From Escherichia coli (GTDB lineage Bacteria > Pseudomonadota > Gammaproteobacteria > Enterobacterales > Enterobacteriaceae), in the NCBI RefSeq assembly GCF_003334255.1, contig NZ_QOWU01000106.1: a DNA stretch of 4,925 bases; one strand, given 5' to 3'. The notes beneath the pieces are model-generated. The model searched no databases. It saw only the letters and a program-made list of their open reading frames with translations, and was not told the origin of the DNA. Below are positions 1 to 4,925 of this stretch, piece by piece. Numbering within the stretch: the first letter of the stretch is position 1; each line of letters begins with the position of its first letter. Made by a program: the position numbers and the translations under genes.

Positions 1-244
1 CCGGATGCCGCCAGGCAGCCGGGAGCCGAAGGTGCGCCCGGCAGACAGGACAACACTGCAGTAGTCAGAATCAGAGCAGGAAGAAAAAGAGAATAATCAC
101 AGGGAAGGTGATGTGATTTCTGACAGGCCATAACCAGAGAAGGCGGGGGAAAAGAACGGGCGCCGCAGGCGCGCGTTCATCCCCGTTCCTGAAGGGAAAC
201 GACCTTCCTGAAGTCAGGTTGTTCATGCCCGTACAACATCAGCA

Positions 245-788: not shown

Positions 789-1508
789 TCACGCTGCCTC
801 CCGGAGTTTGTTCGGCACCATCCACCGCTCCATCTCACGGACAGCGTGACCGGCCTCTCTTGCTGCAAGACTGGCTTCCGCAATAACCTGCCAGAACGGC
901 ATATCCTGCCACTGCCAGCGTTCCATTCCGGCCAGTGACGGAAAACGCTCGCCCCACTGCCAGAACAGGGTTTCCAGGTCATGCTCTGCCACCCGGTCAC
1001 TCCAGCGTGCATGCCAGCTTCCGACTGTTTCCGGCGAATGGAATGCCAGTTCGATTTCAGCCTGAGCGACCAGCGCCTGGTACGCACGGGCTTTCTGCTC
1101 TGCCTCCCTCGCCTGCTGGCGGCTGTACTTCTGCATGACCAGCGCGGATTTATGGCGACTGCGTTCCCTGACACGAAACCGCACCGACGGGAACAAGCGC
1201 TCTGCTGCATCACCGGGAAGGGGAAGGAGGCAGACCTCGCCCTGTGTTTCAATCAGCACATCGATGGCATACAGCCACTGAAGACGGTTGCCGTGCAGTT
1301 CTTCTGCGGTCAGGGACGGCATGAAAAATCGCAGGTCAGACAGCGATATCCTGCGGCTTCCGTTCAGACAGCGGAAAAACGCACCCGCATACGGATATTC
1401 AGCCAGCGTGTTACCCTGATGGCGGCGTTTTTCGGTCTCCGCCACCGCCCGCCATGCGGCCTGTTGCTCTGTGCTGAGAGGAACCAGTGCCTGTGAACGT
1501 GCGCTCAT
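789..1508 (-). CDS. psiA: PsiA, plasmid SOS inhibition protein A (239 aa)
   Basis: 239-aa ORF beginning [19 protein letters not shown], recognised as PsiA of IncF plasmids. ATG at complement of 1506-1508 is preceded on the minus strand by GGAAGGAGG with a 6-nt spacer. The start overlaps the psiB stop (ATGA). Stop TGA at complement of 789-791. Confidence 0.95.
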
Positions 1509-1939
1509 GCCTGACCTCCTTCCGCCATCAGGATATGAATGATGTCGTTAACGCTGTACCCCTGCGCATCCAGTGACGCCGCCAGTGCCAGTGAATGGCT
1601 GACAGCTTCCGGTGCAAACCGCCGCTGCACCTGAACCACCGCAAACGGCTCACCACCGGCATTCACCAGAACCAGCACCCAGACCTGAGAGACGTCTCCC
1701 GGCGAACATAATGCCAGGTGGAAACGTTCGTGGGCTGGCGTGAAACGAACCTGGACGGGGAAAAAGCCCCCGAACTCACTGCCATACTCGCCATTCATCA
1801 TCCAGTTAGCCGGTGCGTCCACTTCACGCATCACCTCGTGAGTGAGATTACGGCGCATATCGCTTCCCGCAGCACGGATATCTTCATATTCCTGTGCGTT
1901 CATGGACTGCAGGGCATTCAGGGTCAGTTCAGTTTTCAT
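1505..1939 (-). CDS. psiB: PsiB, plasmid SOS inhibition protein B (144 aa); binds RecA and limits SOS induction in the recipient during conjugation
   Basis: ORF translating [32 protein letters not shown]..., recognised as PsiB. The track ORF begins one codon earlier at a GTG (complement of 1940-1942); I call the ATG at complement of 1937-1939, which has AAGGGAGA 7 nt upstream on the minus strand. Confidence 0.95.
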
Positions 1940-1958: not shown

Positions 1959-1981
1959 CCGCCCCGTCTCCGGCGGGGCGG
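1959..1981. other. Intercistronic GC-rich hairpin between the ParB-like gene and psiB (stem ccgccccg/cggggcgg, 7-nt loop)
   Basis: Perfect 8-bp inverted repeat 1959-1966 / 1974-1981. It lies between the ParB-like stop (1994-1996) and the psiB SD/start (1939). Confidence 0.45.
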
Positions 1982-1993
1982 TGTGGTTGTTCA

Positions 1994-3952
1994 TCAGGCG
2001 GCATCAGCCAGGTTATCGGTGCGTTCAGTGGCATCTGTCTGTGGATGTGGTGCACACATCCAGCCTGGAACCCAGCGGTTGTCTTTCATATGGTGCTCTG
2101 CATGTTCAGCCGCATCACCTTTCTTCATCTTCTCCGCGTCCCGTGCGGCACCGGACAGTCCGGCCTCATTCAGGGCTGCGATAATCTGCGGCTTTTTCAG
2201 GTGTCCGAAGAAGTTTGCTTTTGTCGGCTGCCACCAGTCGCGCATGTGGAATCCGATAGCGCTTTCCAGCGAGTCAAGCGGACTGCGTGACGTGTGACCA
2301 CACTCACGGGTCTGGACACCGTTAAGGCTGCATGCGGTGCAGAAACTGAGCAGGGATAACAGCACCTCCTGACTGAGGGACAGGAATGTCGTCATGTCCC
2401 GTGACCATCCCTCCGGCAGCAGGGCTGCAAGACGGGATTTTTCTGCCATCAGCGCCATGAATGCGGCACCTTCCTTCCCCGATGGCGCATCGCTGGTCAG
2501 CGAATAATGTTCACATTCCAGGCTGATTTGTGCTGGTTTACTGTACGCCCCGCTGCCAAACACATTCAGGCAGAGCGTCCATGCCAGCAGTGCCAGAGAT
2601 TTGTCCGGCTGCTGCATGAGTGCCGCCTGGACTGCCAGCGTGCGCTCTGAGGACATTTTCGTCAGCAACGGCAGGCTGATTTCCTCCACTGACGCTTTCT
2701 CCTGCACCTGTTCCGTGCGGTCAGCGTCGTCAGTCGCGTCATCTTCACTGCGCAACTGCACACCACGCTGGACACATACGTTGCCATAACGCCAGGACAC
2801 CACCACACCGCTTCCGGCACGTATCTCCGGCGTCCACGCTCTGACCTTCGCCATGCAGCGCATCAGCTTCATTTCTGCTTCCAGCAGGTCGGATTCCTCA
2901 CACTGGTTTTCCAGCGCGTCGTAACGCGTCATCAGTTCGTTCAGGCGTTCGTCTTCCGCCTCCGTCAGCACCGCTTCCGGCTCCGGCAGACAGCGGTATG
3001 TTCCGGCATCCTCACGGCACTCACCGACAGGCTCCATGCGCCCGGCGCACCATTCCCAGCCTTCGGCTTCCCGAAGGTGTTCAGCGACAGCCTGGAGTTT
3101 TTCCAGCAGGGCGGCATCGAGCGCCACGCGGTCGACATAACCGTCCCCGTCATCGCTGAACAAATCGGTGCGCAGTTCGTCTGGCGAGAAGGCATCAGCC
3201 CCCACGAAGCGGAATTTACTGTTCCCAGCCACCGCCACTTCACTTTCGGTCACCAGACGACGAATGGTCTGTACTTCCGGTTTACCGCCCCATCCCGACT
3301 GACAGGCGGCTTCAAACACCTGCACCTGACGCGCGGTGTCGTTCTCCAGCGCCAGCGCCTGACAGTGTTCGGTGGTGATGCGGTCTTCTGCCAGCGCATC
3401 GAGGATGACAGGCGCAAGGTCAGCCAGTTTCAGCATTCGCTGAACGTGGCGGGGTGAATAGCCCAGCAAATCACCGATGTGTGCAGGTGTTTTGCCTTCC
3501 TGCGCCATTGCGCGGAATCCGGCAATCTGTTCGGCAGGGTGCATATCCCGACGATGACCGTTCTCGGTCATTGATGCGGCAGTCGCCAGCTCCTGCGGAA
3601 TAATTTTTACGCGGACAGGCCAGTCAGCCGGAATGATGTCACGCTCTGCCAGCATGTTGAGTGCTGCCAGTCGGCGACCACCTGCGGCGACACCGTAACG
3701 GTCACCTGGCAGGGCATGAACAACCAGATTCTGCAGCAGGCCGACTCCCTTAATGGAATCAGCCAGTTCACTGACGGACTCCGCAGAATACGGCACCGTG
3801 CGCACATTCAGCGGTGATTTAATCAGTGAATCCAGCGGCACGCTCACTTCCTCCGTCTGCGCCAGCAGGGCAGACAGTGCAGTTTCCTGCGTTTTTACAG
3901 ATTTACGGCTTGCTTTGCGGGTGGTTTCTGGTTCACACTTCGTTACAGGCAT
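1994..3952 (-). CDS. ParB/Srx N-terminal-domain protein (652 aa) with HTH and a long uncharacterised C-terminal region; leading-region ParB-like protein
   Basis: The N-terminal roughly 200 aa shows ParB N-domain hallmarks: box-I-like LIKSPLNVRT, arginine-rich box-II-like VAAGGRRLAALNMLAE, and a downstream HTH-like segment TPAHIGDLLGYSPRHVQRMLKLADL. The remaining roughly 430 aa has no motif I recognise (no DPPY/NPPY methyltransferase motif, no obvious nuclease motif). Start called at the second ATG (complement of 3950-3952), which has AAGGGG with a 6-nt spacer; the track's first ATG (3958) abuts the SD. Confidence 0.88.
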   Translation of the reverse strand: MPVTKCEPETTRKASRKSVKTQETALSALLAQTEEVSVPLDSLIKSPLNVRTVPYSAESVSELADSIKGVGLLQNLVVHALPGDRYGVAAGGRRLAALNMLAERDIIPADWPVRVKIIPQELATAASMTENGHRRDMHPAEQIAGFRAMAQEGKTPAHIGDLLGYSPRHVQRMLKLADLAPVILDALAEDRITTEHCQALALENDTARQVQVFEAACQSGWGGKPEVQTIRRLVTESEVAVAGNSKFRFVGADAFSPDELRTDLFSDDGDGYVDRVALDAALLEKLQAVAEHLREAEGWEWCAGRMEPVGECREDAGTYRCLPEPEAVLTEAEDERLNELMTRYDALENQCEESDLLEAEMKLMRCMAKVRAWTPEIRAGSGVVVSWRYGNVCVQRGVQLRSEDDATDDADRTEQVQEKASVEEISLPLLTKMSSERTLAVQAALMQQPDKSLALLAWTLCLNVFGSGAYSKPAQISLECEHYSLTSDAPSGKEGAAFMALMAEKSRLAALLPEGWSRDMTTFLSLSQEVLLSLLSFCTACSLNGVQTRECGHTSRSPLDSLESAIGFHMRDWWQPTKANFFGHLKKPQIIAALNEAGLSGAARDAEKMKKGDAAEHAEHHMKDNRWVPGWMCAPHPQTDATERTDNLADAA

Positions 3953-3981
3953 AATCATCCCCTTATAATTGCTTATGTCCT

Positions 3982-4003
3982 GCCGGACGTTCGCGCGTCC
4001 GGC
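3982..4003. other. Intercistronic GC-rich hairpin between the DUF905 gene and the ParB-like gene (stem gccggacg/cgtccggc, 6-nt loop)
   Basis: Perfect 8-bp inverted repeat 3982-3989 / 3996-4003. It lies between the DUF905 stop (4011) and the ParB-like SD/start (3952). Confidence 0.45.
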
Positions 4004-4010
4004 ACCTCTC

Positions 4011-4244
4011 TTACTTAAGAATCCCGAAATCCCTGATGTACCGGTTCATCCAGTACCCGGCACAGTCCTCAAAATTCCAGGAGCGCCAGATCAACGTGCC
4101 ATCCTGACGGACAACCAGGCGAAAATGCGTTCCCTGATCATCCTCGATAAAGACATTCCGGTACTGTGCGGCAACGGCTTCGGCCTGTTTGCGGGTAAAA
4201 GGACCGTCCGGCAGTCCCTGAAGTATTCTGAAATATTCGCTCAT
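4011..4244 (-). CDS. DUF905 family protein (YkfF-like), 77 aa, function unknown
   Basis: Translation [77 protein letters not shown] shares the GPFTRxQAxAV...EDDQGxHFRLVVR...WRxWNFE...NRYIR core with E. coli cryptic-prophage YkfF, as I recall it. The track ORF starts at a GTG (4271); I call the ATG at complement of 4242-4244, preceded by GGAGAG on the minus strand. Confidence 0.8.
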
Positions 4245-4262
4245 CCTCATCTCTCCGGTGAT

Positions 4263-4281
4263 GCCCCGCACTGGACGGGGC
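4263..4281. other. Intercistronic GC-rich hairpin between ssb and the DUF905 gene (stem gccccg/cggggc, 7-nt loop)
   Basis: Perfect 6-bp inverted repeat 4263-4268 / 4276-4281, read directly. It lies between the ssb stop (4300) and the DUF905 SD/start (4244) and is not followed by a U-tract in mRNA sense. Confidence 0.45.
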
Positions 4282-4299
4282 GGTTGTCACTGTCTTTCG

Positions 4300-4827
4300 T
4301 TAGAACGGAATGTCGTCATCGAAGTCATACGCGGGTTCAGACGGCTGCTGAGGCTCCGGCTGCGCGGCCTTACGTCCACGGCCTTTCGTTTTCGCGCCTC
4401 CTTTTTTCGGTTCCGGCTGTGATTCCGGCTGAGGCTGACCGCTGAACTGTTGCGCCTCTTCCGGCTGAGTCTGAGTACCTGCGGCACGTCCCAGCATCTG
4501 CATGGTGCCCGTGGTCTTAACAAGAATTTCGGTGACGTAACGGGTGATACCGTTATCCTCCCAGCTACGGGTGCGAAGCTGACCTTCGATGTAGACCTGC
4601 GCGCCCTTGCGCAGATACTCACCAGCCACTTCCGCGAGCTTGCCGAACAGCACCACGCGATGCCATTCTGTCTGCTCCCGTATCTCCCCCGTCTGTTTGT
4701 CGCGCCAGCTTTCTGACGTGGCCACCTGCAGGTTTGCCACTGCGCCCCCGTTTGGGATGTAACGGACTTCCGGATCTTTTCCCAGACGACCGACAAGAAT
4801 GACCTTGTTAATGCCACGAACTGCCAT
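4300..4827 (-). CDS. ssb: Plasmid-encoded single-stranded DNA-binding protein SSB (175 aa)
   Basis: Translation [48 protein letters not shown]... is a canonical OB-fold SSB N-terminus. The C-terminus has a Gly/Pro/Gln-rich linker and the acidic tip [11 protein letters not shown] at complement of 4825-4827 is preceded on the minus strand by AAGGAGA with a 7-nt spacer. The track's extra 13 N-terminal codons (to 4866) have no SD and are rejected. Stop TAA at complement of 4300-4302. Confidence 0.95.
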
Positions 4828-4925
4828 GATGTGTCTCCTTCTGTTGATGTTTTCAGCCCCCATCATCTGTTGAGTTTCGGGAGCCGCGGTTTTGACGTTT
4901 TGCGGGGACCTGCTCTTTGTTCCCT

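Follow-up and report, generated by a model that had tools for sequence, protein, structure and literature searches.

Why should every gap between the cistrons of a plasmid operon hold one small, GC-rich hairpin? The question is raised by a 4,925-nt stretch of Escherichia coli DNA (contig NZ_QOWU01000106.1; hereafter the window), which comprises an IncF leading-region block, ssb–DUF905(yfjA)–parB-like(yfjB/herB)–psiB–psiA–hok/mok/sok, with every gene on the minus strand. The window is 99.8-100% identical to IncF plasmids, for example RCS28_pI (NZ_LT985227.1). The hairpins exist, are under selection, are specific to leading operons, and lie at the 3' ends of cistrons without U-tracts. That they act in RNA, and that they stabilise it, we infer; our tentative answer is that H1-H3 and their like work as RNA stem-loops between cistrons, each stabilising the 3' end of the cistron before it. 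The three hairpins of the window are:

H1, 1959..1981, minus strand: in the gap 1940-1993 from the parB-like gene (yfjB) to psiB; 8 bp, all G:C, with a 7-nt loop.
H2, 3981..4004, minus strand: in the gap 3953-4010 from the DUF905 gene (yfjA) to the parB-like gene; 9 bp with a 6-nt loop.
H3, 4263..4281, minus strand: in the gap 4245-4299 from ssb to the DUF905 gene; 6 bp, all G:C, with a 7-nt loop.

In the mRNA sense, H1 reads CCGCCCCG-CCGGAGA-CGGGGCGG and H2 reads UGCCGGACG-CGCGAA-CGUCCGGCA. H3 has in this sense 7 bp including a U.G pair and a 5-nt loop, GCCCCG(U)-CCAGU-(G)CGGGGC, and is flanked by a short outer helix (4258-4261 paired with 4287-4290). The block contains three intercistronic gaps only (54-58 nt), each with one hairpin that starts 9-21 nt past the stop codon and ends 6-16 nt ahead of the next Shine-Dalgarno (SD) sequence. 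The initial annotation had placed a G+C-only hairpin in each gap, between the stop codon and the next SD, and all three were found there. Its description of H2 was right in location but not in composition or extent, since H2 is one base longer on each side and includes two A:T among its nine pairs (one internal A:T, one closing T:A). Folding of each gap, the check that it had proposed, gave stable structures, at -19.4, -17.8 and -15.2 kcal/mol as RNA and -12.8, -12.0 and -10.0 kcal/mol as DNA (z = -2.8, -4.9 and -2.4) for the H1, H2 and H3 gaps, respectively. In none of the RNA folds was an SD sequestered by a hairpin.

A hairpin was defined by a perfect stem of 6 bp or more, of which at least 6 are G:C, and a loop of 3-8 nt. 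A scan of the whole window identified four such elements, namely H1, H2, H3 and the hok terminator at 323-342. None occurred in 20,000 random 55-nt coding windows (0/20,000), and dinucleotide shuffles of the gaps gave rise to one in 2.4% (H1), 0.23% (H2) and 0.27% (H3) of trials. A chance origin of H1-H3 is thus excluded.

Conservation was assessed across some 100 related metagenomic and genomic loci. The metagenome scan contributed the 80 closest loci, and divergent loci were reached through 50%-identity cluster representatives; a scan of the genome collection for distant PsiB loci returned 5 loci only, all close or contaminant. Across the set the stems are almost invariant, while loops and spacers vary freely, and orthologous gaps at a PsiB identity of 40-55% retain a GC hairpin of altered sequence. 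H2 occurs with at least eight loop variants, yet 99.1% of its cells are paired. Two of its pairs show compensatory changes (A-U to G-C and G-C to A-U, in 3 cells), and 0 of 500 shuffles reached the observed score. Its spacer to the parB SD differs completely between plasmid lineages, with H2 itself kept. For H3, 100% of the cells are paired in the mRNA sense, the top pair being C-G, U.G or U-A but never C.A; there are again two compensatory pairs, C-G to U-A (locus L099) and G-C to A-U (L072), with 4-5 of 500 shuffles reaching the observed values. The H1 arms GCCGCCC/GGGCGGC are invariant in all plasmids examined, down to 40% PsiB identity. Retention of the stems to this distance, together with the compensatory changes in H2 and H3, argues that the hairpins are selected structures. 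The initial annotation had named a lack of conservation or covariation of the stems as one result that would speak against a function, and the opposite was observed.

Some loci of the comparison set differ from the window close to a hairpin. The CCCCG pentamer of the 5' arm of H3 (window about 4276-4286) is present in 2-3 tandem copies in L024/L047-type loci, L054 and L082, an expansion that resembles slippage and gives the stem more than one register in which to pair. In L008-L014 the psiB allele encodes a protein with no more than 67% identity to that of the window (1505-1939), and it lies between a parB-like gene of 91-94% and a psiA of 96% identity; the H1 gap is 100% identical in L008. 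These loci have undergone a psiB allele swap with its breakpoint right after the hairpin and the SD. In L079, upstream of parB, the end of IS26 (TTTGCAACAGTGCC) lies a few bases 3' of the position of H2 and replaces H2 and the upstream genes.

Such arrangements might suggest that the hairpins are merely junctions between gene modules, either relic terminators of once-independent genes or recombination linkers, with little present function. Sequence diverges abruptly beside them (H2 3' spacer, H1 5' spacer), the 67%-identical psiB allele sits among near-identical parB, H1 gap and psiA, and insertion sequence (IS) and slippage events cluster nearby. The H1 duplex GCCGCCCC/GGGGCGGC also recurs in non-homologous gaps, in both orientations. 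However, compensatory changes and invariant stems beside free loops indicate continuing selection on pairing, and H1-H3 are devoid of a recombinase, of an attC-like core and of bulged bases. We therefore consider this explanation highly improbable.

The initial annotation had confined the pattern to the ssb-DUF905-ParB-psiB block. It holds there, but it covers the whole leading regions of IncF, IncI and IncW plasmids. In the complete IncF plasmid RCS28_pI, all of the short co-directional leading gaps (8/8, 46-76 nt) contain a hairpin, as opposed to 3/22 comparable gaps elsewhere (Fisher p = 3e-5). These three are an integron attC site, a mer-operon gap and a 134-nt tra-operon gap, and none of the tra-operon gaps shorter than 100 nt has a GC hairpin. 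An annotation-free scan placed 19 of 34 strong hairpins within the leading 18% of the plasmid. The IncI plasmid pESBL, for which experiments have delimited the early operons, has a hairpin in 8/8 leading gaps and in 1/12 gaps elsewhere (p = 7e-5), with 24 of 40 strong hairpins within the leading 19%. Non-homologous leading gaps follow the rule as well. In the IncW plasmid R388, most leading-region gaps carry a hairpin, several of them with U-tracts.

In 5,426 E. coli genomes H2, the only one of the three searched in this way, was found 4,444 times on plasmids and 55 times on chromosomes (median per genome, 1) and is single-copy within a replicon; the dispersed REP/BIME repeat families were thus rejected as its identity. 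In the chromosomal CP4-6 island of E. coli K-12 (L107), the DUF905 paralogue ykfF has a U-tract hairpin and then an SD in both flanking gaps (7208-7304 and 7545-7620), and neighbouring paralogous genes are separated by 8-22-nt gaps without hairpins. A psiB homologue of 49% identity lies outside the leading region in L104/L105 (8001-8435), after an ABC-transporter gene; its 239-nt upstream gap is AT-rich and contains no GC hairpin. In the leading gaps of R388 (L097, 18394-22590) the motif GGCGGCAAC is repeatedly present at the hairpin tip. It resembles GGGGCGGCAA of the IncF/IncI gaps and may represent a shared sequence preference or a recognition motif.

The layout of these gaps is regular: stop codon, 4-21 nt, hairpin, 2-16 nt, strong SD, start codon. 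A hairpin in this place could serve either of its neighbours, and the ends of the operons help to distinguish between them. For most last-in-operon genes without a near downstream gene, a GC hairpin follows the stop codon at a distance of up to about 30 nt, in some cases with a U-tract; the exception in both plasmids is the gene ending the psi operon, which has no such 3' hairpin. For the first-in-operon genes (ssb, the antirestriction gene and ardA), upstream folds showed no GC hairpin beside the SD. The hairpin is therefore better assigned to the cistron that ends before it than to the next ribosome-binding site. Among the mechanisms listed in the initial annotation, 3'-end stability or processing is thus favoured over control of re-initiation.

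Translational control was nevertheless considered, as the hairpin might insulate the SD from upstream RNA, or couple or uncouple termination and re-initiation between cistrons. In almost every gap it ends 2-16 nt before a strong, AAGGAGA-like SD, and a ribosome that terminates at the nearby stop codon has to melt it. On the other hand, the SDs of first cistrons are equally strong although no hairpin precedes them, in most last cistrons the hairpin is not followed by an SD, the sequence separating H2 from the SD can be replaced freely, and none of the hairpins sequesters an SD. A primary role in translation is therefore very unlikely in our view.

Short GC-rich hairpins (about 5-10 bp) past a stop codon are also characteristic of intrinsic terminators, and some operon-final hairpins as well as the minus-strand hairpin at 323-342 are of this kind. 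The latter is followed by UUUU and marks the end of the hok/flm mRNA. In contrast, H1-H3 are not followed by a U-tract in the mRNA sense (tails CAGCAAGGGA, GGACAUAAGC and AUCACCGGAG, with 0-2 U in the next 10 nt), and a terminator scan lists none of them on the minus strand. Intrinsic terminators were accordingly rejected, as the initial annotation had anticipated. Junction hairpins nevertheless grade into ordinary terminators, because those flanking ykfF and several in R388 have U-tracts. Some operon-final hairpins have a U-tract and H1-H3 have none, which suggests that the intercistronic ones are built for read-through.

Partial attenuation could still lower dosage in the order ssb > yfjA > yfjB > psiB/psiA, possibly more efficiently on a single-stranded template. 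This would agree with the terminator-like position after each stop codon, with the U-tracts of the equivalent R388 and CP4-6 hairpins, and with the true terminators among the operon-final hairpins of the same plasmids. It is at odds with the 0-2 U after the stems, with a terminator consensus scan that flags H1 on the opposite strand only, and with the early expression from Frpo2 of the most distal genes, psiB and psiA (PMC9849209). We regard attenuation as distinctly unlikely.

Stem-loops between cistrons are known to stabilise the upstream mRNA, as in the malE-malF repetitive extragenic palindromic (REP) sequence, phiX174 and the puf operon. H1-H3 resemble these elements in being GC-rich stem-loops 3' of an open reading frame in a polycistronic transcript, without efficient termination. 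They differ from them in their deployment, with a hairpin for each cistron all along operons that have a single-stranded DNA (ssDNA) template, and in not forming a dispersed repeat family, H2 being single-copy. The effect expected from this class is a shielding of the upstream segment from 3' exonucleases, which here we propose by analogy. As to structure, each hairpin is a stable, selected stem-loop 3' of an open reading frame, and the operon status of the genes is documented (PMC9849209; PMC12672017).

The genes ssb, yfjA, yfjB, psiB and psiA form one operon under the ssDNA promoter Frpo2, which is active only as long as the incoming plasmid stays single-stranded (PMC9849209; PMC12672017). 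Such transient expression provides a reason for selection on mRNA lifetime. Transcription from Frpo2 would last a few minutes, until the incoming strand turns double-stranded. A stable GC stem-loop a few nucleotides past each stop codon, without a U-tract, would let RNA polymerase read through; the transcript would be cut in the single-stranded spacer, and the stem-loop would then halt 3'-to-5' exonucleases such as PNPase and RNase II. Each cistron would thereby outlast the short transcription window and give more protein, and as a secondary effect the strong SD just downstream would be kept free of upstream pairing. Stabilisation of this kind would also explain the confinement of the feature to leading operons, because with a briefly active ssDNA promoter mRNA lifetime would limit protein yield. 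The hairpins at equivalent positions in a double-stranded context (ykfF flanks and several R388 gaps), judged by their form, would act at the transcript level too.

Several observations weigh against 3'-end stabilisation in RNA. H1 shows pure sequence conservation without informative covariation, which could reflect a sequence-specific partner rather than stability alone. RCS28_pI and pESBL have about six homologous gaps in common, so that their counts are not independent replicates. Furthermore, RNA is not favoured over DNA when the two senses are compared: of 39 distinct leading gaps, 17 fold better in the mRNA sense and 19 in the sense of the transferred strand (T-strand) (p = 0.19), and all three window hairpins fold slightly better in the T-strand sense. 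Single changes that keep a wobble pair in mRNA only number about 5-6 and those that do so in the T-strand only about 3; the former concern the H3 top pair (U.G, C-G, U-A) and changes in L093, L005, L043 and L044. There is no convincing asymmetry between the strands. A palindrome forms on both, and most of the favourable evidence fits an element acting at the DNA level almost equally well.

The strand in question could be identified from the origin of transfer. An F-type nic motif, GTGGGGTGT/GG, is present on the plus strand of the matching plasmid, upstream of the leading region and next to traM. This makes the plus strand the T-strand and the template of the genes of the block, in support of the initial annotation. 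Hairpins in this strand might form small duplex islands free of SSB and RecA in the incoming ssDNA, and might thereby slow complementary-strand synthesis, prolong the ssDNA-promoter phase, or otherwise organise the ssDNA. Consistent with this are the predicted DNA stability (z = -2.4 to -4.9), the confinement of the hairpins to the part of the plasmid that works as ssDNA, folding in the T-strand sense that is at least as good as in the mRNA sense, and some variants that keep only a G.T wobble on the T-strand. There is also a precedent in the region, since the large stem-loop ssp2 is a proven replication roadblock that is resolved by UvrD (bioRxiv 10.64898/2026.01.09.698686). Against this, ssp2 and Frpo are much larger structures than stems of 6-9 bp, and a single discrete stall was mapped, at ssp2 (bioRxiv 10.64898/2026.01.09.698686). 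Hairpins at homologous positions exist in the chromosomal island, with U-tracts, and others in R388 operons that, by our own reading, apparently have sigma-70-type promoters. The sole leading-region gap of pESBL between opposite-strand genes (68368-68400) lacks a GC hairpin (n = 1), and the U.G pair that often tops H3 corresponds to a C.A mismatch in the T-strand. We consider action in the T-strand unlikely on balance. Of the ssDNA role put forward in the initial annotation, general priming does not agree with the limitation of the hairpins to the leading region, and a structural role in the T-strand is still conceivable.

RNA and DNA might also act together. Frpo transcripts are known to act as primers in the form of RNA-DNA hybrids. 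Where there is no non-template strand, the newly made RNA would tend to remain annealed to the T-strand; at a GC palindrome the arms of the hybrid could resolve into an RNA hairpin and a DNA hairpin formed together, breaking the hybrid ahead of each ribosome-binding site and making the next cistron translatable while the DNA is still single-stranded. Because both strands would matter, no bias would be expected in the strand tests. Such an adaptation of the hairpins to a single-stranded template is an improbable explanation in our estimation.

H1-H3 were further compared with other structured elements of conjugative DNA. The Frpo/ssi/ssp promoters share with them the region and the strand logic (T-strand structure), and Frpo2 is located just upstream of ssb. 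However, Frpo-type elements are long imperfect hairpins (>100 nt) that rebuild -35/-10 sequences upstream of operons, whereas H1-H3 are 19-24 nt long, lie inside the operon and have no promoter hexamers; Frpo-like repeats are found elsewhere (L001 9369-9837 and others). ssp2 is likewise a leading-region T-strand stem-loop, and it affects the conversion of ssDNA to double-stranded DNA, but it is a large promoter hairpin, and a stall at small intercistronic hairpins was not reported (bioRxiv 10.64898/2026.01.09.698686). Integron attC sites are gene-boundary palindromes that fold in conjugation-delivered ssDNA, and true attC sites are present elsewhere in RCS28_pI. Unlike attC sites (55-140 nt), H1-H3 are perfect short stems without R/L cores (GTTRRRY) and without extrahelical bases, and no integrase is encoded near them, the intI1 of the plasmid being far away in the resistance region.

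A search of the window with Rfam covariance models (E <= 1) matched sok only (507-683). A loading site for ParB (HerB) at H2 was set aside as each gap has a different palindrome; HerB foci form without need of the plasmid (PMC13370423). CsrA sites (GGA in loops) occur in H1 and in several of the H2 loop variants, whereas the divergent orthologues have none. For a G4-type primase signal, CTG is found beside H1 and H2 on the T-strand, but the motif is too short and the rest of the T-strand is without hairpins. Antisense terminators were also dismissed, because a weak T-rich plus-strand tail occurs at H1 only and the L099 orthologue has none.

The genes and SDs of the block, to which the hairpin positions refer, are as follows:

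4300..4827, minus strand: ssb, from annotation and Pfam PF00436; first cistron of the Frpo2-driven operon.
4251..4256, minus strand: SD of the DUF905 gene, GGAGAG; start codon 4242-4244.
4011..4244, minus strand: DUF905 gene, probably yfjA of F, from PF06006 and annotation.
3959..3964, minus strand: SD of the parB-like gene (yfjB/herB), AAGGGG; start codon 3950-3952.
1994..3952, minus strand: ParB-like gene, 652 aa (yfjB/herB of F), from PF02195 and annotation (PMC13370423).
1947..1952, minus strand: SD of psiB, GGGAGA, from sequence, 6 nt 3' of H1; start codon 1937-1939.
1505..1939, minus strand: psiB (PF06290 and PF06952 are cited for psiB/psiA).
789-1508, minus strand: psiA, overlapping psiB by ATGA.

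Because of this overlap there is no gap, and no hairpin, between psiB and psiA. The spacing of the psiB SD is kept among relatives.

Some further features of the window were noted. Its best sigma-70-like match (GTTACA-16-TATAAT, 10/12; 3942-3969, plus strand) points antisense into H2 and the DUF905 gene, and the spacer carrying it is not kept in other lineages. The window ends, 1-93 and 4849-4925, are copies of units present three times in the leading region (in L001 at 1283-1359, 9938-10027, 12729-12782 and 13266-13356); they go with Frpo-like ssDNA promoter repeats, including the hairpins CATCCCGGC..GCCGGGATG and GCGACCGGAACGGTCGC. The ssb gene of several related plasmids is interrupted at codon 13/14 (window 4788|4789) by a group II intron of 2.66 kb (ltrA) in sense orientation; it occupies the same site at the 5' end of ssb in L002 (7789-10449), L010 and L011, and its splicing could restore ssb. 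In RCS28_pI, an IS66 element breaks the region downstream of hok, at window position 217-225 approximately.

In the full-text literature searched on the leading region, Frpo, ssDNA promoters and hairpins, only the large promoter hairpins are described in detail, and we did not find a rule of one hairpin per cistron; older F/ColIb-P9 sequence papers outside this search may mention the pattern. One preprint examined how the density of palindromes changes along leading regions and saw no trend. By their form the elements belong to a familiar class of intercistronic stabilisers and terminator-like hairpins, and what is new is their regular, conserved and leading-region-specific deployment.

The genes of the leading region, encoding SSB, PsiB, anti-restriction proteins and YfjB/HerB, decide the establishment of resistance plasmids in a new host and are expressed in a burst from ssDNA. 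Recent work has centred on the large promoter hairpins. If the small hairpins are ordinary mRNA stabilisers, they are a useful annotation and no surprise. As a second layer of small conserved hairpins, one per cistron, they would amount to a simple design rule common to IncF, IncI and IncW plasmids, and this layer could set the protein yield of the short transcription window or the handling of the incoming strand.

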